Positions 6,502 through 36,320 of a stretch of DNA of 46,031 nucleotides are shown piece by piece; positions within the stretch are counted from its first letter, which is position 1; every line of letters starts with the position of its first letter. The notes beneath the pieces are model-generated. The model did not search any database. It worked only from the letters and a program-made list of their open reading frames with translations, and was not told the DNA's origin. A program made the position numbers and the translations under genes. Origin of the DNA: Candidatus Peregrinibacteria bacterium (lineage in GTDB: Bacteria > Patescibacteriota > Gracilibacteria > UBA1369 > LOWO2-01-FULL-3); assembly GCA_016206505.1 (NCBI GenBank), contig JACQRJ010000024.1:1-46031 (forward strand), read 5' to 3'.

Positions 6502-6690
6502 AGAATTTTTATTAGAAATTGCTACAAATCTAGCACAAATCCTTTAATCGAAACAGCTTAAACAAGCCGCAAAACATGATTATGACACATTTTCCCGGCC
6601 AAATTTATCACCCCGAAAATTACTCTCAAAACAGCCCTCAAATCGAGTTCGCTTTTTGTCCGAAAAGGGCGTCAAGTCGAAGTTGGCGCC

Positions 6691-6728
6691 GTTCTAAGAT
6701 TCCGTTCCCGGGAATGCAATCTTAGAAC
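6691..6728. repeat. 38-bp near-perfect palindrome overlapping the lhgO stop; possible terminator or operator
   Basis: GTTCTAAGATT-CCGTTCCCGGGAATGC-AATCTTAGAAC, with two mismatched pairs. Confidence 0.65.
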
Positions 6729-8110: not shown

Positions 8111-8166
8111 CAGCGTGGATTGTAAGGCATAATCCGCCACAACTACAACTCTTTTTAAAACAACAA

Positions 8167-20275: not shown

Positions 20276-21955
20276 TCATTTCTGACAGCACAAAATCAAT
20301 TCACTGCCCAGATTATTCCGGCGCAACCAATCAAGATGTTGATCAAGAACAGCCTCATTTTTTAGAAAGTCATTTATTATCTCAGCTTCTGCTCTGGCAG
20401 CCATGGAGGAACTACATTCCGCTCCATACTTATACCAACGATCTTTTGTTTTCATGCCAACGCATTCATGATGTTCCGCAATTATTTTAAATCCGCATTT
20501 CGCCAGGATCGGTTCAAGCACTTTTCTGGAAAATATGGAAATATGCTCGCCTGGAGTAATCGCCCAAAAATCAAGCGCGTGACAATAAGGATTATCAAAA
20601 TCCGGCGTAGAAAAGACATAAATCCCCCCTTCCTTCAGAGACTTATAGATTTTGTTGAAATAATCCTCAAGTTTTTCAAGTGGCAAATGCTCTATCACTT
20701 CCCAATTAGTCACCAGATCAAGCTCCACATTTCCAAAGGATTCATTGAGAAAATCCGACTGTTTCATGTCTATCCGAAAAGGAGCCAAACCATTCTCAAT
20801 CAATGGAGAAATGCGATAATCCCAAAGCATTATCTGAAAATCCGGAAAATTTTGCCTCAAAAAAACCACAAACTCCCCATCCCCTCCGCCAAGATCAAGG
20901 ACTTTGGCATTGGAACTAAGCTTTTTAATATATGGCAAAGCTGCGACATAATTGTAAAAATGACTGGTATTTAAATGGTTCAAATTTTCATAATGAACCC
21001 TTAGAGTTTCGTCAGTCCATTCGGAAGCATCATAAGAATATCTATCATAATAACGCCAAAGTTCCTTTTCCGGCATCCGCGGATTAACAAAAACAAGCCC
21101 GCATTCATGACACAAAAAATAATATTCGGAAAAACGCGTCAAAAATCCTGTTAAAGGCTGGGAAACATCGGCATATACCGGACTGGTTGCTTTTGGGGGT
21201 TCTGAAAAAGTACCAGATACAAGGCGGCAGGAAAAGTCCGACCGCAGTGTACTGGCTTGTACAAGAGGATCGGACTTTTCCGACAACGCGGTAGATGGTA
21301 CTTTTTCAGAACCCTCTTTTGCACCGCAGAGAGGACAGGCTTCAAGATATTCCAGCCGGACATCTTCGCCATAGGCCAAAATAAATTCCGTCCCTTCCTT
21401 GCCACTGAAAAAATCCAAAATATCCTCGACGCTTTTCAGATGCAGATCTGCAATTTTTTCCACCAAAGCCCTGAAAATTTTCACTCTTCGCAGCCTTGCT
21501 AAATTTAGCTGTGAATTGTACTTACGCTGTAATACAGAATGAACGTAATATGTCTTGGAACCATCGCCAAAAACACCGGCCTTTGAAACAAGGCTGACCG
21601 CCGTACCCGGCACCGCACCTTTGGCTTCAATCCTCACATTTCTTGCTGCAGCTTCTTCAATCATCGTTCTTAGCAAAGGCAAATCCAAAAGTGGATTTAT
21701 CAAGGGAGTGATTACCATTATCTGTTCAGGGTCTTCTGCGTTGGCAATAAGCTTTTCATCATCATCCGCCCCCATTTGCTGAAATCCCAATGAATAATCG
21801 GAGAAAAAATGCTCCAGCCTCTTTTGTATAAACTGAAATAAAAATTGATCAAACTGCTCCGCCTCAAGGTGCTGACTGCTTCTGCAATAAATTTTCAATC
21901 GCTTCAACATAGAATGGTCAAATACTACTTTGGTAAGAAAATTTGTCCAGCTCAT
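20276..21955 (-). CDS. Class I SAM-dependent methyltransferase with a zinc ribbon and an N-terminal extra domain; contains an in-frame 42-aa repeat insertion
   Basis: CPLCG...CHECGLVFVNPR, VLDLGGGDG, WEVIEHLP, LKEGG and FSTPD. Confidence 0.85.
   Translation of the reverse strand: MSWTNFLTKVVFDHSMLKRLKIYCRSSQHLEAEQFDQFLFQFIQKRLEHFFSDYSLGFQQMGADDDEKLIANAEDPEQIMVITPLINPLLDLPLLRTMIEEAAARNVRIEAKGAVPGTAVSLVSKAGVFGDGSKTYYVHSVLQRKYNSQLNLARLRRVKIFRALVEKIADLHLKSVEDILDFFSGKEGTEFILAYGEDVRLEYLEACPLCGAKEGSEKVPSTALSEKSDPLVQASTLRSDFSCRLVSGTFSEPPKATSPVYADVSQPLTGFLTRFSEYYFLCHECGLVFVNPRMPEKELWRYYDRYSYDASEWTDETLRVHYENLNHLNTSHFYNYVAALPYIKKLSSNAKVLDLGGGDGEFVVFLRQNFPDFQIMLWDYRISPLIENGLAPFRIDMKQSDFLNESFGNVELDLVTNWEVIEHLPLEKLEDYFNKIYKSLKEGGIYVFSTPDFDNPYCHALDFWAITPGEHISIFSRKVLEPILAKCGFKIIAEHHECVGMKTKDRWYKYGAECSSSMAARAEAEIINDFLKNEAVLDQHLDWLRRNNLGSELILCCQK
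21195..21316. mobile_element. 122-bp palindromic MITE-like element with 4-bp TSD (TTTT), in frame in the methyltransferase gene
   Basis: Perfect 19-bp IR at 21197-21215 / 21296-21314. Inner 12-bp IR at 21230-21241 / 21270-21281. Apical TGTAC/GTACA hairpin. TTTT at 21191-94 and 21317-20. Confidence 0.9.
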
Positions 21956-21983
21956 TTTTCAGCATATATAAGCGAACGTCGGC

Positions 21984-22012
21984 TTGCTTCGCGGTGAACA
22001 TTTCTTTAGAAT
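21984..22012 (+). promoter_or_regulatory. Putative sigma70 promoter for the downstream operon
   Basis: TTGCTT (21984-89), 17 bp, TAGAAT (22007-12), in a divergent intergenic region. Confidence 0.5.
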
Positions 22013-22037
22013 TAGCCCGCTTAAACCAGAAATATTT

Positions 22038-22955
22038 ATGGCGAAACAGACAAAAGTCATGGTTACCGGTGCGGGCGGTTTTATAGGAGCGGAAATCTGT
22101 GATTTATTACTCAAAAAAGGGCTTAGGGTTTATGGCACGTATCATACTGATGCCAAAAGACTGAATCGGTTCAAAAAAAACAAGAATTTCAAAGCCTCAT
22201 CGCTGGATATCACTCATGCTGATTTGCTCAATCGTTTGATCAAAAAAATAAAACCACAAGCGGTATTTCATACCGCCGCCGCTCTCCCTGGCAAAGAAAT
22301 TGATGCGCAACTACTTTTCGGCAGCAACGTTCTTGGCACTTTAAACCTGCTTGAAGCCTGCCGCCTCAACAATGTCAAAAAATTCATTCATAGCTCTTCC
22401 ATGAGCATTTATGGCACAAACCCTAAATATCTCCCCGTTGACGAAAAACATCCGGCAAACCCCTACGATTTTTACAGCCTCAGCAAAAAAGCAGCCGAAG
22501 ATTTATGTGGATTTTACGCACAAAATTATAATTTGAATATTGTAATTTTGAGATATTCGGGCGTTTTCGGCCCAAGTCGCACTTCCGGCGCCGTCGGCCA
22601 ATTCATTCTCAATTCCCTTAAAGACAAGCCCCTAAACATAAATAACAATATCAGTTGGGACATAGTCGATGTTACGGATATTGCCAAAGCCAACTTCCTT
22701 GCTTATCAAAAAGCGGAAAAATTAAAGTATTCGGTAATAAATATCGGCCGGGGCCTGGATATCAATATTCTGGATCTGGCCAAAAAAATTCTCACACTGA
22801 GCAAATCAAAGTCGCAAATAAAGATCGGCCCCTCTTTCAATAAAAAGCCCTATCGCTTCTATTTTGATATTAAAAAAGCGGCAAAAATGTTAAATTTCAA
22901 ACCCGGCAGCCTTGATAGCAGCCTTAAGAAATACATCGATACTCTTAAAACATGA
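22038..22955 (+). CDS. NAD-dependent epimerase/dehydratase
   Basis: VTGAGGFIG, SSSMSIYG, YSLSK and LRYSGVFGP. Start moved to ATG 22038. Confidence 0.9.
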   Translation: MAKQTKVMVTGAGGFIGAEICDLLLKKGLRVYGTYHTDAKRLNRFKKNKNFKASSLDITHADLLNRLIKKIKPQAVFHTAAALPGKEIDAQLLFGSNVLGTLNLLEACRLNNVKKFIHSSSMSIYGTNPKYLPVDEKHPANPYDFYSLSKKAAEDLCGFYAQNYNLNIVILRYSGVFGPSRTSGAVGQFILNSLKDKPLNINNNISWDIVDVTDIAKANFLAYQKAEKLKYSVINIGRGLDINILDLAKKILTLSKSKSQIKIGPSFNKKPYRFYFDIKKAAKMLNFKPGSLDSSLKKYIDTLKT

Positions 22956-23650
22956 TCGTTACAATCCACCAACCGGAATATCTGCCTTATCTCGGCTTCT
23001 TTGACCGGATTATAGAGTCTGATGTTTTTGTAATACTGGATCATGTTCAATTCCAGAAAAGCGGTTTTATACATCGCAACAAAATCAAAACCCACAACGG
23101 CTGGCGCTGGCTGACAGTAACAGTGGATTCTAAAATGAAAAACATGCCGATCAACACTGTAAAAATCAAAAATGAATCCGGCTGGAGCAGTGAGCATTAT
23201 AAATTGCTAAAAATTTATTACCAAAAAGCGCCTTTTTTTGAACAATATGAGCAACTGCTACAGGATATTTATAATCGTGAATGGGAATACATAGTTGATT
23301 TGGACATATATTTACTTGAGCGCCTTTTGGCAGTGCTTGGAATCAAAACGAAACTTTACAGATCATCAGAATTAGACCTGGCAAAAGAATCGGAAGACTG
23401 GAATATTGATATTTGTAAGAAATTAAACGGAAATACATATTTATCCGGGCCCGGTGGCAAATTATATATGGATATGGAAAAATACAAAAAGGCAGATATA
23501 AAAACCACGTTCAGAGATTTTATCCACCCTGAATACAATCAATTATATATGAATGAATCAGGATTTGTGCCCTACATGTCTATTCTCGACTTATTATTGA
23601 ATCACGGAGAAGGGAGCCTTAAAATAATTCAAAAATCATGCGCAAAATAG
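22952..23650 (+). CDS. WbqC-family protein
   Basis: IHQPEYLPYLGFF, LDHVQF, RNKI, YLSGPGGKLY and SILDLL. Confidence 0.92.
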   Translation: MIVTIHQPEYLPYLGFFDRIIESDVFVILDHVQFQKSGFIHRNKIKTHNGWRWLTVTVDSKMKNMPINTVKIKNESGWSSEHYKLLKIYYQKAPFFEQYEQLLQDIYNREWEYIVDLDIYLLERLLAVLGIKTKLYRSSELDLAKESEDWNIDICKKLNGNTYLSGPGGKLYMDMEKYKKADIKTTFRDFIHPEYNQLYMNESGFVPYMSILDLLLNHGEGSLKIIQKSCAK

Positions 23651-24789
23651 CAGTTATCACTGGCATCAGGGCGGACTATGGAATCATCTATCCGGTCATC
23701 AAAGAGATACAAAAACACAGGGACCTGAAACTTGAATTGATTGTGGCAGGTACGCATTTGTCTCATGAATTCGGCTATACAATCAAAGAAATTGAAAACG
23801 ACAAATTCAAAGTTGCAGCAAAAGTTGACATGCTTTTGAGCGATAACACTGGCGCAAGAATGGGAAAATCAATAGGTGTCGGCATTTTGGGATTTACGCA
23901 GACTTTTGAAATTTTGAAACCGGATATTACTTTACTCATAGGGGATCGGGAAGAAATGCTGGCCGCCGCAGTAGCCTCTCTATGCATGGATATTCCGGTT
24001 GCACACATCCACGGTGGCGAAATTGGAACCGGAGGACACATTGATGAATCCGTACGGCACGCCATTACCAAATTTGCACATATTCATTTTGCTGTTACAA
24101 AGAAAAGCGCAGAAAGAATAAACAGGCTTGGTGAAGAAAACTGGAGAGTGCACTTTGTGGGAGCGCCATTTATGGATAATATCAAGCAAAAAAGATTTAC
24201 CGGATCAAACGAACTTAAAAAAAAAATCGACCTAGATCTTTCAGAACCCCTGATTGTTGTAATTCAGCACCCATTAACGCTGGAGTCAAAGAATTCAAAA
24301 ACCCACATGCAGATAACAATGGAAGCCGTTGCACATTTCAGATTACCGACAATAGTGATTTATCCGAATGCCGATGCCGGCAGTCAGGATATTATTCAGG
24401 TAATTAAACAATATGAAAGATACCCATACATTAAAGTTTTTAAAAATTTTACACCCCGGGATTATCTGGGAATACTCAAAATCGCCGGCGTTGTTGTGGG
24501 CAATTCAAGTTCAGGCATAATCGAAACTCCGGCTTTCGGATTGCCCGCCGTCAACATTGGAATACGCCAGCTTGGAAGAGAAATGTCTGAAAATATAATA
24601 AATGTAGGGTATGACAAAAAAGAGATTGAAAACGCTATAAGGCAATCGCTTTTCAACGAAGCCTTCAGAGTAAAGGCAAAAAATTGCCAAAATTTTTACG
24701 GTACCGGCGGTTCATCACAAAAAATAGTTAAAATTCTTGCCGACATAATCCTTGATAGCAAGCTATTACATAAAAAAATGACTTTTTAA
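23638..24789 (+). CDS. neuC: UDP-N-acetylglucosamine/UDP-diNAcBac 2-epimerase (hydrolysing), copy 2
   Basis: GIRADYG, GDREE, HIHGGE, DESVRHAITKFAHIHF, GNSSSGIIE and IGIRQLGR. Confidence 0.92.
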   Translation: MRKIAVITGIRADYGIIYPVIKEIQKHRDLKLELIVAGTHLSHEFGYTIKEIENDKFKVAAKVDMLLSDNTGARMGKSIGVGILGFTQTFEILKPDITLLIGDREEMLAAAVASLCMDIPVAHIHGGEIGTGGHIDESVRHAITKFAHIHFAVTKKSAERINRLGEENWRVHFVGAPFMDNIKQKRFTGSNELKKKIDLDLSEPLIVVIQHPLTLESKNSKTHMQITMEAVAHFRLPTIVIYPNADAGSQDIIQVIKQYERYPYIKVFKNFTPRDYLGILKIAGVVVGNSSSGIIETPAFGLPAVNIGIRQLGREMSENIINVGYDKKEIENAIRQSLFNEAFRVKAKNCQNFYGTGGSSQKIVKILADIILDSKLLHKKMTF

Positions 24790-24793
24790 AATC

Positions 24794-25918
24794 ATGGGGA
24801 AAAATCAACTTATACCATTAACAAGGCCTACACTGCCAAAAATTGAAAGCCTGACGGACAAAATTGCAGAAATTCTTAAGAGCGGCATGATAACAGACAG
24901 TAAATACGTCCGCCTTTTTGAAGAAGAGTGTGCGAAATATCTTGGCGTAAAATACGCAGTAGCAGTCAGTTGTGGTACAGATGCACTAATGATGGTACTG
25001 AAATGTCTCGACATAAAAGGTGAAGTTATTTTGCCCAGTTTCACTTATTCTTCAGGAGGACATGCTCTTTTATTGTCGCGTATCAAGCCTGTTTTTGTGG
25101 ATATTGAGGAAGAAACATTCAATCTCGATCCAAAAAAGATTGAAGCGAAAATTACAGGTAATACTGCAGCAATTATGCCTACTCATGTCTTTGGCAATCC
25201 ATGCGACATAGACAGAATTGAGGCTATTGGCCGTAAAAATAACCTCAAAATTATTTATGATGGAGCACACGCATTCGGTTCGTTATACAAAAATAAATCT
25301 GTAGCGAAATTCGGTGATGCAACGATCTACAGCTTCACGCCAACGAAAGTCCTTACAAGCGGAGAGGGCGGACTCGTCGTCACCGATGATAGAGAACTTG
25401 ATCGAAAACTTCGATTGGCAAAGTTAAACGGAGACAGTTTTAACCGTGATGAAGAATTTCTGGGATTCACGGCCCGTATGAGCGAATTACAGGCTATCCT
25501 TGGACTTGAGTCTTTAAAATTGCTTGATAAATCGCTACAAAAAAGATTCAAAATCATTGATTACTTTAAAAAAGTCATCAATTCTCTTGATGGCATCAGC
25601 TACCAAAAAATCGCACCGTCCTCAAAATCTGTCTACAAAGATTTTGCTATCATCATTGACGATAAAAAGACCGGATTTACCAGAAATGAGCTGCTTGCCG
25701 AATTCAAAAAAAACAATATCCAGTCCAAAGTCTACTTTGATCCTCCATTGCACAAAAAAAACGTATACGCAGCTTACAAATCACTGATACTGCCCAACAC
25801 CGACTATGTCTCAAGCCACATTCTGAGCCTACCGCTCTATTCGCACATGCCTCTATCTGAAGTGAAACGAGTTATCAAAGTTATTGTCAGATTATTCAAT
25901 AAAAACAAGAAAATATGA
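24794..25918 (+). CDS. DegT/DnrJ/EryC1/StrS aminotransferase, copy 3
   Basis: THVFGNPCD, YDGAHAFG, SFTPTKVLTSGEGG and ARMSELQA. Confidence 0.92.
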   Translation: MGKNQLIPLTRPTLPKIESLTDKIAEILKSGMITDSKYVRLFEEECAKYLGVKYAVAVSCGTDALMMVLKCLDIKGEVILPSFTYSSGGHALLLSRIKPVFVDIEEETFNLDPKKIEAKITGNTAAIMPTHVFGNPCDIDRIEAIGRKNNLKIIYDGAHAFGSLYKNKSVAKFGDATIYSFTPTKVLTSGEGGLVVTDDRELDRKLRLAKLNGDSFNRDEEFLGFTARMSELQAILGLESLKLLDKSLQKRFKIIDYFKKVINSLDGISYQKIAPSSKSVYKDFAIIIDDKKTGFTRNELLAEFKKNNIQSKVYFDPPLHKKNVYAAYKSLILPNTDYVSSHILSLPLYSHMPLSEVKRVIKVIVRLFNKNKKI

Positions 25919-26577
25919 AAGTTATCGTAATTGCTCCTCATGCCGACGATGAAACTTTAGGCTGTGGTGGAACTCTGCTCAAACATCGGGAACAAGGCGA
26001 TGAAATTTATTGGGTCATCATCACCACTCCCACTAAAGAATTCGGATATTCAAAAGAGCAATTGGAAAAAAGAGGAGAAGAAATAAAGGCGGTATCGCAA
26101 GCTTATGGATTCAGTGAAGTTGTTGAATTTAACTTACCTGTAACCAAAATAGATTTGCTCTACACCAGAGATCTGGTCTTAAAAATCAGAGAAGCTTTTG
26201 AAAAAATAAAACCGGAAATCGTCTACATTCCATTTTCACATGATGCTCACTCCGACCACAGAAAAACTTTCAGTGCCGCTCTCAATTGCATCAAGACTTT
26301 CAGATTCCCTTACATTAAGAAAATCTTCATGATGGAGATAATCAGCGAGACCGAATTTGCCGCACCAAATGATGCTGCTTTCGCGCCAAATTACTTTGTG
26401 GATATCACAAATTACATTGACAAAAAAACAGCGATCATGAAACTATACGAAAGCGAAGTTGATAAGAGACCTGCGCCTCGCAGCCTTGAAAATATTGAGG
26501 CCTTAGCCACCTTTCGCGGTTCGACGGCAAATTGTCAATATGCGGAAAGCTTTATGCTCTTAAAAGAAATATGGTAA
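25915..26577 (+). CDS. PIG-L/LmbE-family de-N-acetylase
   Basis: APHADDETLGCGGTL, DAHSDH, SETEF and ALATFRG. Confidence 0.9.
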   Translation: MKVIVIAPHADDETLGCGGTLLKHREQGDEIYWVIITTPTKEFGYSKEQLEKRGEEIKAVSQAYGFSEVVEFNLPVTKIDLLYTRDLVLKIREAFEKIKPEIVYIPFSHDAHSDHRKTFSAALNCIKTFRFPYIKKIFMMEIISETEFAAPNDAAFAPNYFVDITNYIDKKTAIMKLYESEVDKRPAPRSLENIEALATFRGSTANCQYAESFMLLKEIW

Positions 26578-27476
26578 ATCCAAAATTACTCAAGACATTC
26601 AAGGGCAAAAAAATCCTGGTCACTGGCGGAACAGGCTCAATTGGCAGTGAAATTGTGCGTCAGCTCCTCCAATTTGAACCCGCACAGATAAGAGTTTATT
26701 CGCGCGACGAGAGTAAGCATTTTTTCTTTCAGAAAGAACTGGAAAAAATTACTCACACATGCGAAGTACGCAACTTGATTGGAGATATCAGAGACAAGGA
26801 AAGGCTGGATAAAGCCATGGGCGGTATCGATATTGTTTTCCATGCTGCCGCGCTTAAACACGTTCCATTCTGTGAATACAATCCTTTTGAAGCGGTCAAG
26901 ACCAATGTCAACGGCACTCAAAACATCATTGATAGCGCTTTACAGCACAATGTCGAAAAAGTTATCGCTATTTCTTCAGACAAAGCCGTGTATCCATCGT
27001 CAATTATGGGCATTACCAAGCTATTGATGGAACGCATGATTATCAATGCCAATTACTACCTCGGCGAATCAAAAACTCAATTTTCCGCAGTTAGATTCGG
27101 CAATGTTTTACATTCCAGAGGATCTGTAATCCCCTTATGGATACATCAAATCCAAAATGGAGACCCGGTAACGGTAACCGATAAAAAGATGAAGCGATAT
27201 TTTATGTCTATTGCTGATGCGGTGAAGCTGGTCTTTATTGCCACTGCCAATATGAGCGGACGTGAGATTTTCGTTCTCAAGATGAAACAGAGAAATATCT
27301 ACAATCTGGCAAAAGAGGTAATTGCAAAATACAATCAGGGTCGAAAAAACGTTTCCATAAAAATAACCGGAGCCAGAGAAAGGGAAAAAATCTCCGAAAA
27401 GCTTTTTACCAAAGAAGAGCAAAGTATGATGGTGGAGAAAAAATCATATTATGTTGTTTATCCTGAAAAAGAATGA
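26571..27476 (+). CDS. UDP-N-acetylglucosamine 4,6-dehydratase family (polysaccharide biosynthesis protein)
   Basis: TGGTGSIG, SRDESK, HAAALKHVP, SSDKA and VRFGNVLHSRGSVIP. Start moved to ATG 26571. Confidence 0.9.
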   Translation: MVNPKLLKTFKGKKILVTGGTGSIGSEIVRQLLQFEPAQIRVYSRDESKHFFFQKELEKITHTCEVRNLIGDIRDKERLDKAMGGIDIVFHAAALKHVPFCEYNPFEAVKTNVNGTQNIIDSALQHNVEKVIAISSDKAVYPSSIMGITKLLMERMIINANYYLGESKTQFSAVRFGNVLHSRGSVIPLWIHQIQNGDPVTVTDKKMKRYFMSIADAVKLVFIATANMSGREIFVLKMKQRNIYNLAKEVIAKYNQGRKNVSIKITGAREREKISEKLFTKEEQSMMVEKKSYYVVYPEKE

Positions 27477-28327
27477 GCCAAAACATCAGAGTTATTCCAA
27501 AGCTGGACATCAAAGGCCCTAATCTTGTCAAAGGGATCCATTTGGAAGGACTTCGTGTTTTGGGCAAACCGGAAGATTTTGCAAAATATTATTATGAAGC
27601 TGGAGCCGATGAACTCATCTACATAGATGTTGTCGCCAGTCTTTATGGTCGCAACAGTCTTCATGACATCGTTGCAAAAACCGCCAAAGAAATTTTCATA
27701 CCCCTAACCGTTGCCGGAGGGCTTAGGACTATCGAGGACATTCGCAGCGTATTGCGTGCTGGAGCCGACAAAGTATCGATAAATACTGCCGCAATCAATA
27801 ATCCCTCACTCATCAGGGAAGCTTCCCGCGTTTTTGGTTCATCCACTATTACTATTTCCATAGAAGCTATCAAACAATCAGATGGAAGTTATCTGGCATA
27901 CACCGATAATGGCCGCGAACACACCGGAGTCGAAGTCCTTACCTGGGCCAAAACGGTAGAGGAATTGGGAGCCGGTGAAATTATGCTTACATCCATTGAC
28001 CGTGAAGGGACCGGACGGGGCTACGATCTTGAGCTGACAAAAGCCGTTAGCGAAAAGGTCTCCATACCGGTCATAGCCTGTGGCGGCGCCGGAAATAGTC
28101 AGCACGTTTTGGAAGCAGTAGAAGCCGGAGCAAACGCGGTAGCCATGGCATCGATTTTACATTATGGCTTTATTGAAAAGCACAAAAATCTTTCCGGATA
28201 CCATGAAGAAGGCAATATCGAATTTTTGAAAAGCGGACGCGAATATCTACCCGGAATTGACAAAGTTGACATCGGTGATGTAAAAAAATATCTGCACCAA
28301 CATAATGTTCCCTGCCGATATTCATAG
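27473..28327 (+). CDS. hisF: HisF-like cyclase paralogue (glycan-associated), copy 2
   Basis: RVIPKLDIKGPNLVKGIHLEGLR, DVVASLYGRN and GAGEIMLTSIDREGTG. Confidence 0.88.
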   Translation: MSQNIRVIPKLDIKGPNLVKGIHLEGLRVLGKPEDFAKYYYEAGADELIYIDVVASLYGRNSLHDIVAKTAKEIFIPLTVAGGLRTIEDIRSVLRAGADKVSINTAAINNPSLIREASRVFGSSTITISIEAIKQSDGSYLAYTDNGREHTGVEVLTWAKTVEELGAGEIMLTSIDREGTGRGYDLELTKAVSEKVSIPVIACGGAGNSQHVLEAVEAGANAVAMASILHYGFIEKHKNLSGYHEEGNIEFLKSGREYLPGIDKVDIGDVKKYLHQHNVPCRYS

Positions 28328-28432
28328 GCTTCAATAAATTTTCAACAACTTGTCAACCAGTATCCTGATTGCGTCTTGCTGGAGACAATATCGTTATAGT
28401 AAACTCATGGCCGACCTGTATAGCCATTTTCA

Positions 28433-29074
28433 GTGATTACAATTATAGATTATCAAATCAGCAACCTTTTCAGCGTCAAACACGCCTGCGATTTCCTTGG
28501 CATTGAGGCTGAAATTTCTTCCGATAAAAACGCCCTTTTAAAGAGTCAGGGAGCGATTTTGCCCGGAGTTGGCGCTTTTGGTGATGCAATGCACAATTTG
28601 GAAAAACTCGATCTCGTCGGGCCGATTAAGGAATTTATCGCTTCCGGAAAGCCTTTTATGGGCATCTGCCTTGGCATGCAGCTTCTTTTTTCCGAAAGTG
28701 AAGAATTCGGCATCAATCAGGGCTTGAATATTATTCCCGGAAAAGTGATGAAATTCCCTGCAAAAAATCAAGAAGGCGAAATAGTAAAAATCCCTCAGAT
28801 TGGCTGGAATCAGATTTATGAACCATCGGCCGAAAAATGGAAAAATACTCCACTTCAGGCCATCAAAAATAATGAATTTATGTATTTCGTACATTCATAT
28901 TATGCCAAGCCGGACAGGGACGAATCGATCCTTTCTCTGACAAATTACAAAGGCTTGGAATATTGCTCCAGCATCCTCCATGAAAACGTTTTTGCCACAC
29001 AGTTCCATCCCGAAAAAAGCGCCAAAGAAGGCATGAAAATATATAGTAATTGGGCTGCCACTACATTAAAATAA
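28433..29074 (+). CDS. hisH: HisH-like glutamine amidotransferase, copy 2 (GTG start)
   Basis: IDYQISNLFSV, LPGVGAF, GICLGMQL, FVHSY and QFHPEKS. Confidence 0.9.
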   Translation: MITIIDYQISNLFSVKHACDFLGIEAEISSDKNALLKSQGAILPGVGAFGDAMHNLEKLDLVGPIKEFIASGKPFMGICLGMQLLFSESEEFGINQGLNIIPGKVMKFPAKNQEGEIVKIPQIGWNQIYEPSAEKWKNTPLQAIKNNEFMYFVHSYYAKPDRDESILSLTNYKGLEYCSSILHENVFATQFHPEKSAKEGMKIYSNWAATTLK

Positions 29075-29085
29075 CCGAAACTTAA

Positions 29086-29207
29086 GTAAGTGCTGAAAAA
29101 CGATTTAATGCAAGGAGATGAGGAGCTTGCGACGTAGTCGTATGAAGCTATACGGCGAGGAGAAAGGGACGAAATCGACACCGCATTAAACGTTTTTCAG
29201 CGCTTAC
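29086..29207. repeat. Divergent intergenic 122-bp palindromic element related to the in-frame MITE
   Basis: IR GTAAGTGCTGAAAAACG / CGTTTTTCAGCGCTTAC (one G-T pair), extended by TTTAATGC/GCATTAAA. Apical GTCGTAT/ATACGGC hairpin flanked by CGTA..GAGGA. Same length and CTGAAAAA register as the other copies. Confidence 0.7.
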
Positions 29208-29240
29208 CCACACCTAAATTAAATATTAACCATTCATTCA

Positions 29241-30473
29241 ATGAATAATACCCAAGAATTGGAAGCCAAATACGGGCTGCCATCGAAAGTGATTTTTTGT
29301 AAACGCTGCGTTATATCAAATCAACGTCCGGCTTCAGAAGTAGAATTCAAACACAATATTAAGACCAAGAAGGTCACCATGAACATCGGTGAAGACGGCA
29401 TCTGCGATGCCTGCAAATATGCCGAGAAAAAAGAAGAGATTAGCTGGGAACAGCGCGAAAAAGAACTTGTTCAACTGCTGGACAAACATCGCAAAAACGA
29501 TGGCAGCTACGACTGCATTGTCCCTGGCAGTGGGGGTAAAGACAGCGTTTATGCGGCGCATATCCTGAAATACAAATACGGCATGCACCCACTGACCGTG
29601 ACCTGGCCGCCAATCCTCTATACCGATTATGGCTATCTGAATTTCAAAAACTGGATTGAAGTGGGTGGATTTGACAACATCACTTTCAAACAAAACGGCA
29701 AAGTAATGAAGCTACTTACCAGATTGTCATTCGAAAATCTTTTCCATCCCTTCCAGACTTTCATTCTCGGACAAAAAAATATCGCTCCCAAAATCGCCCT
29801 TAAATATAACATTCCGCTAATTTTTTATGGTGAAAACGAAGCCGAATACGGCAACCCAATTAAAGACAACAAAAGCTCCCTTCGCGACAAAGCCTATTTC
29901 AGTATGCAAAATCTGGATGAAATCTATCTTGGCGGAGTTTCCATTGGTGAACTTCGGGAAAAACATGCTGTAGATCTTGCAGATTTACAATGCTTTTTAC
30001 CGCCCGACTATAAAGAGCTGGAAAAATCCGACATTGAAGTTCATTACCTGGGTTATTATCTCAAATGGATTCCTCAGGAAGCTTACTACTACGCTGTCGA
30101 GCACGCCAATTTCCAGGCCCGCCCATTCAGAACAGAAGGCACCTACAGTAAATACGTCAGCATAGATGATAAAATCGACGATCTAAACTATTACAACATT
30201 TTCATCAAATACGGTATCGGCCGCTGCACTTACGATGCTTCCCAGGAAATCCGCAACAAGCATCTTACTCGTGAAGAAGGCATGGCCCTGGTAAAAAAAT
30301 TCGATGGTGAATTTCCTCAAAAATACTTTAAAGAAGTTATGAATTATCTCGGCATGGATCAGGATTATTTTTATGAATTACAAGATAAATTCCGCTCTCC
30401 TCATCTCTGGAAAAAAGTTGATGGAGAATGGAAATTGCGCCATACGGTAAACAAAGACGGAGCTGACGATTAA
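29241..30473 (+). CDS. N-acetyl sugar amidotransferase (PseA/PtmG/WbuX family), copy 2
   Basis: CKRCVISNQRP, CDAC, VPGSGGKDS, YGENEAEYG, SIDDKID and EIRNKHLTREEG. Confidence 0.9.
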   Translation: MNNTQELEAKYGLPSKVIFCKRCVISNQRPASEVEFKHNIKTKKVTMNIGEDGICDACKYAEKKEEISWEQREKELVQLLDKHRKNDGSYDCIVPGSGGKDSVYAAHILKYKYGMHPLTVTWPPILYTDYGYLNFKNWIEVGGFDNITFKQNGKVMKLLTRLSFENLFHPFQTFILGQKNIAPKIALKYNIPLIFYGENEAEYGNPIKDNKSSLRDKAYFSMQNLDEIYLGGVSIGELREKHAVDLADLQCFLPPDYKELEKSDIEVHYLGYYLKWIPQEAYYYAVEHANFQARPFRTEGTYSKYVSIDDKIDDLNYYNIFIKYGIGRCTYDASQEIRNKHLTREEGMALVKKFDGEFPQKYFKEVMNYLGMDQDYFYELQDKFRSPHLWKKVDGEWKLRHTVNKDGADD

Positions 30474-30477
30474 AGCC

Positions 30478-31449
30478 ATGAATAATATTTGCATTATCGG
30501 TGCTGGTCAGCTTGGCAGCCGCCATTTGCAGGCACTTCAAGCTCTCTCTATCCCACTCAATATTACAGTGGTTGATCCTTCGCAGGCATCATTGCAAACT
30601 GCTCGTGAGCGCTTTGAAGCGGTACAGGGCTCCGCAAACCACAGTATTGAATATGTGCAATCGCTGGAAAATACAGCTCACAATTTTGATCTGGCCATAG
30701 TCGCCACGACATCAAATTATAGACGTCAGGCTGTGGAAAGTTTGCTGCAATATTGCACGGCTAAATTCATGATTTTGGAAAAAATACTTTTCCAAAAACG
30801 CGAGGATTATGAAGCGGTGGGTAAACTTTTGGAGCAAAAAAATTGCAAAACTTGGGTAAACTGCAGCATGCGCACCATGACTTTTTATGCGGATTTACCC
30901 TCAAAGATCAGCAAATGCCCTCTGACATATCTGGTAACCGGCAGTAATTACGGGATGATTACCAATATCATTCATTATATCGACCATATTGCTTATCTTA
31001 CCGGGTGCTACGATTACGAAGTCACAACCGGCGCTCTTGATCCCAAGCCGGTAGCAAGCAAGCGTCCGGGCTTTCTGGAGCTCAACGGGACTTTGACAGC
31101 GCATTTCAAGGATGGCAGCCACGCGACTTTCAATTGCTTTGAAGACGGCGATGTCCCGTTTCTTGTGGAAATACACAGCAAAGAATATCGCTGCATCGTT
31201 CGTGAAAATGAAAGAAAAGCCTGGGAATCTTCACCAAAAAACGGTTGGCAATGGCAGGAAGTTGAAGCGGTGATCCCTTTTCAAAGTCAAATGACGGCTT
31301 CCTTAACCGAAAATATTCTGCAAACCGGTAATTGTCCACTCGTGCCCTATGAAAAAGCGGCAAAACTCCATCTCACATTATTGGAAGCATTGTCGGAATT
31401 TTTAAATAACAAAAGCGGCCAAAAATTCGACCTATATCCTTTTACCTAA
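30478..31449 (+). CDS. Gfo/Idh/MocA-family oxidoreductase
   Basis: IIGAGQLGSRHLQAL, ILEKILFQ, WVNC and IHYID. Confidence 0.82.
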   Translation: MNNICIIGAGQLGSRHLQALQALSIPLNITVVDPSQASLQTARERFEAVQGSANHSIEYVQSLENTAHNFDLAIVATTSNYRRQAVESLLQYCTAKFMILEKILFQKREDYEAVGKLLEQKNCKTWVNCSMRTMTFYADLPSKISKCPLTYLVTGSNYGMITNIIHYIDHIAYLTGCYDYEVTTGALDPKPVASKRPGFLELNGTLTAHFKDGSHATFNCFEDGDVPFLVEIHSKEYRCIVRENERKAWESSPKNGWQWQEVEAVIPFQSQMTASLTENILQTGNCPLVPYEKAAKLHLTLLEALSEFLNNKSGQKFDLYPFT

Positions 31450-31452
31450 ACT

Positions 31453-32415
31453 ATGCCTGCATCACCGATAATACTTGTTGGAACCGGACCGATGGCGGTA
31501 GATTACGCCAAAGTTTTAAAAGCCCTTAAATGCAAATTCTTGGCAATCGGACGAGGAGAGACTTCAACTAAAAAATTCACCGAAGAAACCGGACACGAAG
31601 CGCGCGCCGGAGGTATTGAAAAATGGCTTAAAGAAAATCCAAAAAAGTCAGTTACAGCCATAGTTGCCGTCACCGAAAATGAACTTGGAAAAGTCACACT
31701 GGCCCTCATGAAAAATGGCTATAGGAAGATTCTTGTAGAAAAACCCGGAGGCGCTTCCCTGCAGGAAATCGACAAAGTCGCGCACGCAGCCAAAACACAT
31801 GGTGCAAAAGTATATGTCGCCTACAACCGCCGCTTCAATTCTTCCACGCAAAAAGCCCGGGAAATTATCAGGAAAGATGGCGGAGTTAAATCTTTTAATT
31901 TTGAATTTACCGAATGGAGTCATGTCATAAAAGATCTCAAAAAAGCTCCGGGAGTGAAAGAGCATTGGTTTATTCATAACTCATCTCATGTCGTTGATCT
32001 GGCATTTTTCCTTGGAGGAAATCCTAAGAAAATTTCAAGCTACACGGCAGGCAAACTTCCCTGGCATCCCGCAGCCGCAATTTTTGCCGGAGCCGGCATA
32101 AGCGAAAAAGGAGCACTTTTTTCCTATCAGGCCAATTGGCAATCTCCCGGCCGCTGGGGCGTAGAAATTCTTACAAAAAAGCATCGCCTCATCTTCCGCC
32201 CTCTGGAGCAACTACAGATTCAGGAAATAGGCTCTGTAGGCATCAATCCGGTTGAGATCGATAACAAATTAGACCTCAATTTCAAGCCCGGCCTCTACAA
32301 AGAAGTCCAAAGCTTCCTTGGCAAAAACGAAGATCTTTGCATGATATCCGAGCAGCAAAGAAATCTCACCTTCTATAAAACAATTTGCCCGCCACAACGA
32401 CATTTGGGCCAATAA
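31453..32415 (+). CDS. Gfo/Idh/MocA-family oxidoreductase
   Basis: VGTGPMAVDY, LVEKPGG, AYNRRF, FEFTEWSH, NSSHVVDLAF and PGRWGVE. Confidence 0.85.
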   Translation: MPASPIILVGTGPMAVDYAKVLKALKCKFLAIGRGETSTKKFTEETGHEARAGGIEKWLKENPKKSVTAIVAVTENELGKVTLALMKNGYRKILVEKPGGASLQEIDKVAHAAKTHGAKVYVAYNRRFNSSTQKAREIIRKDGGVKSFNFEFTEWSHVIKDLKKAPGVKEHWFIHNSSHVVDLAFFLGGNPKKISSYTAGKLPWHPAAAIFAGAGISEKGALFSYQANWQSPGRWGVEILTKKHRLIFRPLEQLQIQEIGSVGINPVEIDNKLDLNFKPGLYKEVQSFLGKNEDLCMISEQQRNLTFYKTICPPQRHLGQ

Positions 32416-33796
32416 GCAAAACTCCGGCCAAAATCACCGCCAAAATCTTCAGCATAAAAGACGACCAAAATCCCAGCCCGATGACAAAATAATAAGCAAC
32501 CACAAAAGGCACCAATAAAGCTAAAATTTTCAGAATCGGCCAAAGCGGCACGCAATAAATTTTTAGAACTTTTTTACTCACAATAAAAGCAAAAACTGCC
32601 ATCGCAAAATACGACACAGCCGTGGTATAGGCCGCAGCGATATAACCAAAATCCGGAATAAACAGTGCATTTAAAATCACATTCAAAACTCCCGCGGCCA
32701 GTACCACCAGAGATAAATATATATTTTTTTTCTCGTATTCGATATTCCAACCGTAAAACATAAAAATTGCATTAAAGATTTACCCTATGACAATTATCGG
32801 TATCACGGGCAAAGCTTCATAAAAACTGCTGGAAGAAAGCAGCATGCCGATTTCCTGGCCGAAAAAAATCAATCCCAAAGCGCAAAAACTCACGATTTTA
32901 AAAATTCTGTAAGCATCGATATTTAATTGCTGATAGTTTTTCTCATCCATATATTTGAAATAATCCGGATTCCAGGCCTGAAACATCGCACTGCTAAAAA
33001 CGGTTAAAATCGAGCCTACGATGGCCGCAAAAGCATACAAACCTGCCATAGAACTTCCGAGGTACTTATTGACCATTATCTTGTCAAACTGTGCCAAAAT
33101 CACTCCACTCAACGAATAAAAAATCAGAGGAACTCCATAATGCAGAAAATACTTCATATGCTTCATTTGAAAAGACAGCTTCAAATACGCTTTCAAATCA
33201 AAAGCATAATAAGCAAAAAACAAACCTCCGACGATCATCATCGCATAAATCTGGCCCAAATATTTATTCTCATTCAAAATCAAAATCAGCACAACCGACA
33301 AAACAAATATCGCATAAGCTTTTACCACATTCCTCACGGCGATTTTCCGACTCTGTTTTTGAGGCACATATATTTGCTCAAACCATGAGCCGCTGACATA
33401 AATCAACACTGCCGGAACAATGTAAAAAATCGTATTCACCGGCAATCCCAAAAGCACCGCAGCCTCTTGTCGAAAGATGACAAAAAGCAAAAAAGCTACA
33501 AAAAGCATAAACAGTATGAAAATCAAAATGGTCCCAAAAAACTCCTTGAAATCTTCCTTTTTTTCATAATAATACCGCCCCAGAGCGACATAGCAATTTA
33601 GCGTCAGTAAAGCCACAAATACCCCCTGATAACCTGTAAAAACGGCCAGTATGCCATAGTCTGAAGTCGAAAGCATTCTTGTCAAAACCGGCAAAGACAA
33701 AAATGCCAGAGCGCCGGTTGCCATATTGCTCAGAAAATAATTCTTCGAATGTCTCAAAAACTCATAAAACTCACTTTTTTTGAAAGCTCTAATCAT
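32366..33796 (-). pseudogene. wzx: Wzx-type oligosaccharide flippase interrupted by one in-frame TAA (32782-32780)
   Basis: The 338-aa and 131-aa ORFs are in the same frame: ...PIIVIG*IFNAIFMFYGW... They join to ~476 aa with Wzx motifs (LPVLTRMLSTSDYG, DKIMVNKY, GLYAFA, LNALFIPDFGYIAAA). Confidence 0.8.
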
Positions 33797-35310
33797 TCGT
33801 GTTTTTTTGTTAAATCATCTATAGCCTTTAGTAAGCGCAAATGCCCTTTGCTGTCAAGCACTCCCCATTTCAACGCCGCAACTTTTTGCATTTCAAGTAT
33901 CTTCGCATAAAATTTTTCATCATTTGCAAATTTCACCAAAAGATTCTGAAATTCCTTTTTTTCTTCTGTATAAACTATCCCTCTATAATCCTCGAAATCA
34001 CTATACCGATACCTGTAAACGTCATAATTCAAAACAGGTTTCCTGCAAGCCGTAGCCCAATAAATAGTCCCCGACATGGCCGAAACAAAAAGATCGCATA
34101 AAGGTATCAGATCGATACTTTTCTGCTTTGCAATCTTCACGCCAAAATCTTCAATATATCTGATTTCTTCATACTTAATGGCTGGATGAAGCGAAATAAC
34201 GACATTGTAATTCTTAATCGCAACAAGCGATTTTATCCAAAATATAACCAGATCATCATATTTCTTAAAATCACACTCCGGCCGTGAGTAGCCATACAAA
34301 ATATTCGGCGGCAGAGCGCAGAGCAAAATCTGCTTCTTTTTATCCAATGAGGACTCTGCAAAAGTACCAGATACAAGACGGCAGGAAAAGTTCGACCGCA
34401 GTGTACTGGCCTGTACATGAGAATCGAACTTTTCCGACAACACAGTAGATGGTACTTTTGCAGAGTCCTCCAATTTCAATTTTTCGCAAAGCTCATTGCG
34501 ACGTATATCAAAATGTCTGAGATGATCTGCCATGATATCGTTTGCCAGGGAACCGGTAAGCAATATCTGGCGCGCAGGAATCCCCTCTTTAATCATAAAT
34601 TCCTTCACCGCTTCGCATTCCACCATGATTTTATCTGCATGACTGCTGTTTACGATCCATGGCAATGGAGGCTTGAGACCAAAAATTTTCATTGCCAAAA
34701 TCTTAAAAGCCGGCCAACGCAGCAATTTTTTCCCCTTATGCTTATAGACCCATTTCGGCTCAAAATAAGCCAAAATTCGATTGCTAAATCTCCTGCAGTC
34801 GTGAGCCGGATTATAAAAATAGGCTTCAGCCGCTTCCACCGGACCGGTTGTGAACATCGGAATTATTGCGGAAGGCACGCCATATTTATGTCCGACTTTT
34901 ATCAAAATATCCGTATTGTGACCTGTATTGTCACCCGAGATTATGATTATAGCGGGCTTCACGTTCTTAATCAGACGTTTGATTTTTTTAAATTCCCTGA
35001 AATAAGCCAAAAATTCATATGCAAAACCGACAAAAAAGTTGCGATACACCATCAACAAAAACTTCTTCACGGCATTTTGCCGTGGATTTAATCTCGACGC
35101 GTCTGCGCCTTGAATATCGGCTTTTTCAAAGCCGCAAACATATTCCATCCCTTCTCTCTCACAAATTTTCAGATCCTGCCGATATTGAGGATAAGGTTGA
35201 GGGAAATAAAAAACCGGCTTATATCCGGATTCTTTCTTCAACATTCTCCCTATTTCCACCAGACCGATGAAATACGTCATTGTATTGACCGCCAGCAATG
35301 CTTTCTTCAT
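33793..35310 (-). CDS. Putative GT-B glycosyltransferase / capsule-biosynthesis-like protein with an in-frame 42-aa repeat insertion
   Basis: QILLTGS, VVISLHP and LIPLCDLFVSAMSGTIYWATACRKPVL are GT-B/epimerase-like C-terminal motifs. Start chosen at ATG 35310. Confidence 0.6.
   Translation of the reverse strand: MKKALLAVNTMTYFIGLVEIGRMLKKESGYKPVFYFPQPYPQYRQDLKICEREGMEYVCGFEKADIQGADASRLNPRQNAVKKFLLMVYRNFFVGFAYEFLAYFREFKKIKRLIKNVKPAIIIISGDNTGHNTDILIKVGHKYGVPSAIIPMFTTGPVEAAEAYFYNPAHDCRRFSNRILAYFEPKWVYKHKGKKLLRWPAFKILAMKIFGLKPPLPWIVNSSHADKIMVECEAVKEFMIKEGIPARQILLTGSLANDIMADHLRHFDIRRNELCEKLKLEDSAKVPSTVLSEKFDSHVQASTLRSNFSCRLVSGTFAESSLDKKKQILLCALPPNILYGYSRPECDFKKYDDLVIFWIKSLVAIKNYNVVISLHPAIKYEEIRYIEDFGVKIAKQKSIDLIPLCDLFVSAMSGTIYWATACRKPVLNYDVYRYRYSDFEDYRGIVYTEEKKEFQNLLVKFANDEKFYAKILEMQKVAALKWGVLDSKGHLRLLKAIDDLTKKHE
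34349..34470. mobile_element. 122-bp palindromic MITE-like element with 4-bp TSD (CAAT), in frame in the GT-B-like gene
   Basis: Perfect 21-bp IR at 34349-34369 / 34450-34470. Inner IR GGAAAAGTTCGA/TCGAACTTTTCC. CAAT at 34345-48 and 34471-74. 107/122 identical to the copy at 21195. Confidence 0.92.
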
Positions 35311-35315
35311 ATTTG

Positions 35316-36320
35316 TTATTTCAAAAACCACTTTTTAAGCCTACCGATAATCCCATCACCTTCGGAAAATTTCAAATAACGCCTCATCAAAGCTACTCGC
35401 CAATATTTCAAATACGGCTTCCACTCGGGATTCACCTCTGCGGCCCATTTTTTAAATTCCTTCCAATTAAGTTTCTTCATTTCCAGAAGTCTCGCCAGAT
35501 CCAGAGAAATCCACGCTGCCAGATATGGCGTCGGCTTAAGATATTTTACCACCCCATGTGCCTGCATCGTGCTTGCTCGTAGCAATTCTTCTTTACTCCA
35601 CTCCATCTCCACAGAAACCTTTTTAATCTTTCGCGCCCACGGACTGTTTTTATGAATCAATTGATGATAATGAAAAACTTCATCCACAAAGCCACACTTG
35701 CCTCCGCCTTTATTGACCACATTTTCAAAAACATAATCCTCCTGCCGATAAACATAATCATCATCGATTTCCCCCAAATGAGCCATAAAAGCCTCCTTTT
35801 TCCCAATCTGTGTTCCTGCAAAAGGACGTTTTTTCGTCTTATTATTTTCATCCGAAAATTCCAGCATCGCGGTTATCTGCATCTGGCAGCCAAACCAGTC
35901 ATATTGATTCCTATACTTTTTCATCACATCAAACCAGTCTTCCGGTATAAAAACATCCGAATGAAAATAAGCGAACCACCCGCTATCGACCTCCTCAATC
36001 AGCTTTCTGATGCTGAATCCCAAAGTTTTGTATTGCCTGTGATCGAAGAGCTCCACTCTCGGAAACTTTTTTACGATTTCTATGGAATTATCCACGCATC
36101 CTCCATCTCCGATTAAGAGCCTTTTCACAGGGATTTCGCGATAAATCGATCGCAAATTGGCCTCCCACATCTCATTTGTATGAATAATTGGTATAATAAT
36201 CTCCAAAGCATCCTTATCATCTTCCAAAAAACGGTCTTTGAACTCTTCCGGATTATAGTAACGGTAAAATATCGATACATCGCTTTTTGCAGAGTCATCA
36301 TTTTTATCTTTTGTATTCAT
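35316..36320 (-). CDS. GT2/GT-A-like glycosyltransferase
   Basis: IIIPII, LLIGDGGCVDNSIEI, YFHSDV and RQED. Confidence 0.7.
   Translation of the reverse strand: MNTKDKNDDSAKSDVSIFYRYYNPEEFKDRFLEDDKDALEIIIPIIHTNEMWEANLRSIYREIPVKRLLIGDGGCVDNSIEIVKKFPRVELFDHRQYKTLGFSIRKLIEEVDSGWFAYFHSDVFIPEDWFDVMKKYRNQYDWFGCQMQITAMLEFSDENNKTKKRPFAGTQIGKKEAFMAHLGEIDDDYVYRQEDYVFENVVNKGGGKCGFVDEVFHYHQLIHKNSPWARKIKKVSVEMEWSKEELLRASTMQAHGVVKYLKPTPYLAAWISLDLARLLEMKKLNWKEFKKWAAEVNPEWKPYLKYWRVALMRRYLKFSEGDGIIGRLKKWFLK

Follow-up and report, generated by a model that had tools for sequence, protein, structure and literature searches.

We analysed a window of 46,031 nucleotides from a Candidatus Peregrinibacteria bacterium (contig JACQRJ010000024.1, here contig C8 of the source assembly), and found that two of its genes each carry an in-frame copy of a 122-bp palindromic element, which we call E1. 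We consider E1, with a probability of about three in four, to be a non-autonomous miniature inverted-repeat transposable element (MITE) that inserts at a 4-bp staggered cut and has the in-frame outcome known from the Rickettsia palindromic elements (RPEs). An earlier note, made from the letters of this DNA, had proposed a MITE family, and the proposal was supported in part: E1 is a multi-copy noncoding palindrome with 4-bp target-site duplications, its internal genic copies keep the reading frame, and precise empty sites exist. The two full copies of the window, their duplications and their host genes are the following.

21195..21316, plus strand (that of the family model, the host being a minus-strand gene): E1 copy A, 122 bp (nhmmer E 1.3e-36)
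21191..21194 (left) and 21317-21320 (right): target-site duplication TTTT of copy A, read from the flanking 4-mers
20276..21955, minus strand: host gene A, class I S-adenosylmethionine-dependent methyltransferase with a four-Cys motif (Pfam Methyltransf_23)
34349..34470, plus strand: E1 copy B, 122 bp (nhmmer E 2.8e-37)
34345..34348 (left) and 34471-34474 (right): target-site duplication CAAT of copy B, read from the flanking 4-mers
33793..35331, minus strand: host gene B, glycosyltransferase-like protein (weak BFO_1060 match)

Comparison of copies A and B showed that they are identical at 107 of 122 positions and that each folds into a single long imperfect hairpin, of -73.3 and -68.8 kcal/mol, respectively, on the plus strand and of -66.8 and -67.4 kcal/mol on the minus strand. 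The z-scores of these hairpins were about -10 to -11, and none of 200 shuffles was equally stable. The terminal arms, of about 21 bp, pair end to end as the terminal inverted repeats of a MITE do, and the window copies end in GAGG...CCTC or GGGG...CCTC. Both copies lie within minus-strand open reading frames (559 codons for host A and 512 codons for host B), which read them in the same orientation and frame, and each insertion of element and duplication adds 126 bp, exactly 42 codons. The coordinates, the length and the identity of the two copies were as the earlier note had given them, and folding and reading of the flanks confirmed the long inverted repeats and the TTTT and CAAT repeats that it had described. 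The same is true of the common orientation and frame, of the addition of 42 codons and of both 42-residue peptides that it had quoted.

Alignment of the host proteins with their homologues showed that the 42-residue segments of the window are insertions and not native parts of these proteins. Among 5.8 billion proteins searched, 18 full-length relatives of host A were found, of about 480-508 residues compared with 544 for the window protein, and exactly 42 columns were missing in all 10 homologues chosen for alignment (42-69% identity). The insert of host A is located between the first and second CxxC pairs of the invariant four-Cys motif. Exactly 42 columns were also missing in 11 of 11 aligned homologues of host B (44-68% identity; 11 of 152 relatives), where the insert is located in an inter-domain linker. 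These alignments reproduced the host junctions CPLCGAK/ATSPVY and LCEKLKL/DKKKQILL that had been proposed from removal of the elements. The earlier note had suggested a search for orthologues with empty sites, and such sites were present for host A (10/10), for host B (11/11) and for a third gene, rsmH, which is described below. Neither host A nor host B had an orthologue among 55 genomes of the same family. The AlphaFold models of the two host proteins had the same predicted template-modelling score (pTM 0.78), and the insert was the main low-confidence coil of each, with a per-residue confidence (pLDDT) below 50 at residues 201-238 of host A and 282-320 of host B; the alignments behind these models held no homologue of the insert, which alone depresses its confidence.

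The source assembly (1,146,228 bp in 68 contigs, 41.7% G+C, 84% completeness) was searched with an E1 profile, which recovered 11 full-length copies (E<=4.6e-22) on contigs C8 (two), C54, C21, C42, C53, C23, C20, C32, C67 and C17, together with a shortened copy at C8:8004-8095 and a few weak fragments. E1 is thus small (<300 bp), present in multiple copies and noncoding for a transposase, as MITEs are. Long frames enclose three of the 11 full copies, namely the two window copies and the copy at C32:27861-27982, which codes in frame for residues 103-143 of the rsmH product (Pfam MraW). The rsmH protein had a match in 24 of 25 other genomes, residues 112-140 of the query were covered in none of the 24, and the N- and C-terminal pieces adjoin in the DNA of the other genomes, which is the empty site. 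Four copies are located at the start of a frame or just upstream of it (the shortened copy in lhgO and the copies of C42, C54 and C53, the last ahead of recX), and the remaining five are intergenic.

8004..8095, plus strand: shortened E1 copy, 92 bp, internal deletion (nhmmer E 1.5e-11, model positions 44-121)
6722..8191, minus strand: frame of an lhgO-like FAD oxidoreductase, with the shortened copy within its first ~70 codons (Pfam DAO, residues 64-461)

A third, shortened copy in lhgO had also been claimed from the letters; this 92-bp copy, with a deletion in its left half, does exist, but it sits at the extreme 5' end of the frame, ends directly before the GxGxxG motif and has no perfect flanking repeat. 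The Pfam DAO match begins at residue 64 of the 489-residue frame, and the copy may be translated or may lie just upstream of the true start. A search with the terminal arms alone gave several solo matches with 0-1 mismatch, including 21-bp palindromes built of both E1 ends at C17:32411-32427 (flanks CATA/CATA) and C31:22172-22188 (flanks TAGT/AAGT), which look like deletions across the hairpin. The solo arms were also considered as ends of an insertion sequence (IS), and this was rejected when their context showed 21-bp deletion remnants or low-complexity matches. A partial extra E1 arm was seen directly beside the full copy of C21 (C21:8581-8725), where the composite hairpin reaches -97 kcal/mol. 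An apparent bias of E1 to the plus strand of contigs (8 of 9 contigs) was discarded, as contigs are oriented arbitrarily and copies lie along and against the genes about equally often (14 sense and 12 antisense among copies from the candidate phyla radiation, CPR).

Perfect 4-bp repeats flanked copies of the source genome as TTTT, CAAT, ATAA (C54), CACC (C21) and CTAT (C53), with one-mismatch pairs at C42 and C32, and copies of the relatives as TTTA, ACTA, TGAA, TAAA and TTAT. Among 82 distinct copies from all genomes, a perfect 4-nt repeat stood at the exact aligned ends of 10, and of 9 of the 25 best-scoring copies, compared with a mean of 1.0 of 82 (0.25 of 25) when the flank pairs were shifted by 5-14 nt. 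The flanking repeats vary from copy to copy and are therefore true duplications and not a fixed target word, which bears out the 4-bp target-site duplications that had been claimed.

We then compared the length and coding capacity of these copies. The 25 best-scoring copies had a modal length of 122 bp and 50 stop-free frames of 150, compared with about 13.5 expected from shuffles, while the other 57 copies had 43 stop-free frames of 342, compared with about 25. Copies from other phyla were mostly 123-125 bp long. The 126-bp, stop-poor property is therefore one of the CPR subfamily and not of the whole family. Outside the source genome, in-frame E1 copies were found in mnmA of two congeneric species (G003 and G066), in sense orientation and at the identical site, at the C terminus of rplD (G041) and in a Wzy-like Wzy_C membrane protein (G005). 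The six independent internal in-frame events, three in the source genome and three elsewhere, comprise four that use an antisense frame starting E-[DG]-S-x-K and two that use a sense frame. All internal genic copies (6 events) were stop-free and, with their duplication, a multiple of three. None of 26 loci of a Deferribacteraceae bin was an internal genic copy. The idea that length plus duplication preserves the frame thus stood for the Peregrinibacteria-type subfamily, whose modal length is 122 bp, and did not extend to the 123-125 bp copies of other phyla; even in the source genome, only 3 of 11 full copies are internal. Preservation of the frame may therefore be less a design than a permissive accident on which selection acts as a filter.

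A second palindromic family, E2, was noticed through depth spikes in metagenome contigs, and one copy of it lies in the window.

29088..29216, plus strand: intergenic copy of E2, a palindromic family related to E1 (profile search and alignment with E1)

E2 was more abundant than E1 in the source genome, with 42 nhmmer matches, and the weak matches of the E1 profile fall on E2 copies. The two families are distant and can be aligned over their whole length, with shared blocks. E2 ends in GGRAC...GTYCC and is flanked by 4-bp duplications such as TTAG, TTAT, CTTG and CTAA. In-frame copies of E2 were found in ksgA, in a gene for an HI0933-like FAD protein, in the class II ribonucleotide reductase gene nrdJ, in recX and, as a remnant, in tgt. 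Of 18 other genomes with a match to the ksgA protein, 17 aligned as two pieces with the insert left out and one (G029) as a single piece, while residues 184-212 of the FAD protein were covered in 0 of 14 other genomes. With E1 and E2 together, at least 8 genes of one 1.15-Mb genome carry element-derived inserts. One E1 copy and two E2 copies are crowded into about 460 bp in and ahead of recX (C53:12798-13260), and the recX frame therefore reads through three element-derived segments. The depth of metagenome contigs over the element cores (window positions 21236-21264 and 29129-29168) was several-fold above that of the flanks, for example 64-157 compared with 8-14, with many variant letters; related element copies are therefore abundant in the same communities.

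The distribution of E1 was determined in relatives and in other phyla, all genomes being incomplete metagenome bins in which IS elements are often unassembled. BLAST with copy A against 41 genomes of the same family or order found E1 in 8, namely the source genome and 7 of 40 relatives, of which one, G005, alone had 13 matches. A degenerate core pattern, which matched 20 of 25 known copies and gave no chance match in shuffles of the window, was scanned against one genome each of 185,579 species and found 79 loci in 35 assemblies (counted from record prefixes), of which 77 loci were confirmed by the E1 profile. The titles of 18 of these assemblies name Peregrinibacteria, Peribacteria, Gracilibacteria or the Patescibacteria group, one is unlabelled, and 16 belong to other groups (Deferribacteraceae/Deferribacterales, Rikenellaceae, Bacteroidaceae, Fluviicola, Balneolaceae/Rhodohalobacter, Pseudodesulfovibrio, Desulfohalobiaceae, Desulfobacterales, two "Deltaproteobacteria", Myxococcales, Nitrospirales and Legionella). 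The Bacteroidaceae locus has no hairpin and is probably a chance match. Lone contigs in bins of other phyla could be binning errors, but the Deferribacteraceae bin that holds 26 of the 79 loci cannot be. The core pattern had no match in viral contigs, and E1 had none in a plasmid collection. One Deferribacteraceae record (L073) has, on a single contig, two E1-type copies in the same orientation about 1.5 kb apart, at 3767-3827 and 5337-5416.

The structural alignment of the 82 distinct copies, which are mutually related, gave a consensus of six nested helices, all of which covary. Double-sided changes were found at 36 of 38 pairs, and 90.8% of cells were paired compared with 69.5% in shuffles (83% of cells for helix 1). 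The covariation score was 0.593 compared with 0.197 in shuffles, a value reached by none of 500 shuffles, and slid controls did not exceed 0.165. The loops between the helices are asymmetric, and their sequences are more than 90% conserved across phyla, with CAAGGCG in the 5' loop, ACCGCAG and GAGGAT flanking the apical stem and CAACGCAGTAGATG in the 3' loop. A conserved GTAG word is located in the right half of E1.

Five element-bearing genomes (the source genome, its relative G005, and G072, G073 and G074, which belong to Deferribacteraceae, Rikenellaceae and Peribacteria, respectively) were scanned for enzymes that could mobilise E1, with the following numbers of matches.

DDE_Tnp_1: source 0, G005 2, G072 0, G073 1, G074 0
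DDE_Tnp_1_2: source 0, G005 1, G072 0, G073 1, G074 0
DDE_Tnp_4 above the cut-off: 0 in all five genomes
Y1_Tnp: source 0, G005 0, G072 0, G073 0, G074 1
TnpB zinc ribbon: 0 in all five genomes
rve: source 1, G005 0, G072 1 (below the cut-off), G073 0, G074 2

The window itself holds no transposase in its list of reading frames or in Pfam and NCBIfam scans, as the earlier note had said. The sole transposase found in the source assembly belongs to an IS3-family element (OrfA and an rve-type OrfB) at a contig end (C1:3948-5293). The IS elements of G005, those of IS5 type included, have ends unrelated to the E1 arms. An IS with matching ends, whose search had been suggested, was found in none of the five genomes, a weak negative given that the assemblies are incomplete. 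A parent of IS5 or IS1182 type is at most putative.

The most probable course of events is as follows. E1, coding for nothing, would be moved in trans by a transposase and would insert through a 4-bp staggered cut in the target, the step to which the variable 4-bp duplications attest. Duplications of 4 bp are made by the IS5, IS701, IS1380, IS21 and IS3/IS407 groups, and those of E1 would point to the staggered cut of a DDE-type enzyme, the most likely type here. With 126 bp including the duplication and few stops, a Peregrinibacteria-type E1 would leave a gene open, and insertion into a tolerant surface loop or linker would add a peptide of about 42 residues, probably disordered according to the models. 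Selection would purge disruptive insertions, leaving the intergenic copies and a minority of in-frame genic copies, and copies would erode through point mutations and through deletions that span the hairpin, the 21-bp stubs being the extreme. The covariation of arms and inner stems, with conservation of the loops, suggests that propagation requires a copy to fold back on itself or to offer two arms that match, and that the loops would be what the mobilising protein reads.

Several results weigh against a conventional MITE of this kind. The terminal bases of E1 differ between lineages and the arms covary even within the source genome, which is unusual for terminal inverted repeats that are read as sequence. 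The inner helices 3, 4 and 6 had 87 G-U pairs and 12 A-C pairs, compared with 42 and 40 in the outer arm, an asymmetry that may reflect the folding of a single strand by itself; the counts exceed the number of independent events, as the copies are related. No scanned transposase family was common to all five element-bearing genomes, and the IS3-like element of C1 has ends related neither to E1 nor to E2. In G072, the two arms were seen only in pairs of about 85 bp, and none of the scanned families was above the cut-off. Among the 41 genomes of the same family or order, two have both E1 and DDE_Tnp_1, six have the element only and five the transposase only. The contigs of four metagenome DNA runs ended inside or beside both window elements, and none had a joint that skips the 126 bp; because contigs break at E1 elements, no population empty site was seen. 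No two E1 copies are identical, the closest pair being at 95%, and these results thus give no sign of current activity of E1.

Some of these results would be expected if the selected unit were a folded single strand, of RNA or of DNA, that is, a structured nucleic acid that happens to be mobile or a hairpin read by a structure-reading recombinase; variants of this explanation are a small RNA gene and a site for protein binding or processing. The six covarying helices, the loops conserved across phyla, the asymmetry of these loops, which is unexpected under symmetric binding of terminal repeats, the excess of G-U pairs in the inner helices (columns 64/84 are G-U in 45 of 82 copies) and the lack of a matching transposase in the five genomes all fit it. 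We nevertheless judge it unlikely. Rfam 15 had no match in the window at the gathering score, and a search at E<=1 over four loci gave only PVT1_3, unrelated and away from the element. There was no consistent neighbour gene, and a cis-regulatory RNA was rejected, the neighbours of 10 non-CPR copies being unrelated genes. The CPR copies lack an orientation bias relative to transcription (14 versus 12), the G-U counts come from related copies and are not independent, and Y1_Tnp is missing from four of the five element-bearing genomes. Variable 4-bp duplications mark a staggered cut of both strands of the target, and none is left by the known single-strand transposases that read hairpins (IS200/IS605, RAYT). 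A broader and equally doubtful proposal is that E1 and E2 are members of a cross-phylum superfamily of mobile hairpins, in which a recombinase would read the asymmetric loops of the folded strand, the stems would need only to pair, and a 4-bp duplication would be left. We know of no bacterial transposon family with this combination. Such a superfamily, if real, would be a regular source of loops of about 42 residues in Peregrinibacteria-type housekeeping proteins (rsmH, ksgA, mnmA, tgt, nrdJ and L4).

The stable hairpins in either strand, and the predicted disorder of the insert once translated, could also be explained if the inserts were intervening sequences, removed at the RNA level or bypassed in translation, with the proteins unaltered. 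This is very improbable, as all six events are stop-free and a multiple of three, properties needed only if the insert is translated, and the frame of the mnmA insertion is kept in two species; disrupted genes were not seen, and no ribozyme or intron family matched. True homology of E1 to an RPE family can be given no more credence. The size class, the hairpin form and the in-frame insertion into conserved genes are shared with RPEs as reviews describe them. The earlier note had put forward a resemblance of E1 to the RPE core, and this found no support: the translations of four open frames spanning copies A and B had no NCBIfam match at E<=10, in a library whose RPE models other than RPE1 were not individually confirmed, and TIGR01045 (RPE1) had no match at E<=1 in six frames of the whole genome. 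The pattern that included the core words of that note found no Rickettsia record among its 79 loci, E1 had no match in plasmids, and its ends are GAGG...CCTC and not the CGTC reported for one end of RPEs.

A MITE thus remains the preferred reading of E1, and in behaviour E1 is of the same kind as RPEs, with no evidence in the comparisons above for membership of an RPE family. In-frame protein-coding palindromes were first seen as a peculiarity of Rickettsia and later in Wolbachia, and RPE-1 to RPE-8 were reportedly described by Ogata and colleagues in 2000 and 2002. RPEs are presented as palindromes of 105-150 bp in frame in many Rickettsia genes (PMC10969869, PMC2229807, PMC3733652). Both E1 and RPEs are palindromic and of similar size, are found between genes as well as in frame within conserved housekeeping genes of a small genome, give the host proteins a common peptide where an insert is tolerated and have no known transposase. 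They differ in that E1 has clear 4-bp target-site duplications, whereas the Delihas table marks those of RPEs with a "?", and in that E1 lacks the CGTC tetranucleotide noted at one end of RPEs by Di Nocera 2013 (PMC3733652). The hosts also differ, E1 being found in Peregrinibacteria-type CPR bacteria and sporadically in other phyla, and not in Rickettsiales.

Correia/NEMIS (107 bp) and ERIC elements are likewise bacterial MITEs with terminal inverted repeats, target-site duplications and long-hairpin transcripts, and open frames of ERIC and of the 107-bp Correia form are fused in frame to host reading frames, according to PMC2229807. Their duplications are of TA type, with TA termini, and their hosts are others, whereas the 4-bp duplications of E1 vary; likeness to either was judged by the Rfam search, which had no relevant match. 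MITEs derived from IS5 share the 4-bp duplication. The TTAG, CTAA, TTAT and CTTG duplications of E2 partly fit what we take to be the YTAR target of IS5, whose ends are presumably G-rich as well, whereas those of E1 (TTTT, CAAT, CACC and others) do not fit YTAR, and no IS5-type transposase was found in the source genome or in the copy-rich Deferribacteraceae genome. REP/REPIN sequences (mobilised by RAYT) and the PATEs of IS200/IS605 are also hairpin repeats that keep structure over sequence, and E1 has a GTAG word; however, E1 is one long hairpin and not a doublet of GTAG-tagged short hairpins. REP/REPIN sequences and these PATEs require a Y1 HUH transposase and make no target-site duplication, whereas E1 has one, and Y1_Tnp was found in one of the five element-bearing genomes and was absent from the source. 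Our literature search returned no description of such elements in Peregrinibacteria or CPR bacteria, and E1 is a new family of an already known kind of element.

The RPE-like phenomenon thus recurs in a lineage that is unrelated and free-standing and whose genome is just as small and as dense in genes, where enzymes of rRNA and tRNA modification are among those affected. This suggests that in-frame palindromes are a general outcome of palindromic MITEs in compact genomes and not a rickettsial oddity. Comparison of RsmH, KsgA, MnmA and L4 with their insert-free orthologues offers natural experiments on a 42-residue disordered insert. In practice, such inserts make proteins longer, cause assemblies to break and can lead to errors of annotation and of domain boundaries in CPR genomes. 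The conserved core with its covarying stems, shared with Deferribacteraceae, Bacteroidota, Desulfobacterota and others, is usable as a marker of horizontal transfer, and the E1 family is a good candidate for tracing its mobilising enzyme.

Near lhgO, the window encodes a 388-residue protein (5335-6501, minus strand, with upstream DNA at 6502-6716) that has a C-terminal HNH-like Cys/His motif and no Pfam match. This protein occurs in at least 10 places in the source genome, with paralogues on C28, C17, C25, C5, C12, C18, C43 and C68, and three copies of the gene are 83-88% identical in DNA, including about 230 bp of upstream noncoding sequence. It was considered as the mobiliser of E1 and rejected, being absent from three of the five element-bearing genomes, and it may represent a separate selfish or homing gene family. 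The window (1-46031) is otherwise mostly a cluster for sugar and nonulosonic-acid biosynthesis, with genes for a UDP-glucose dehydrogenase, a NeuB/PseF-like fusion, aminotransferases, WbuX and several methyl- and glycosyltransferases.

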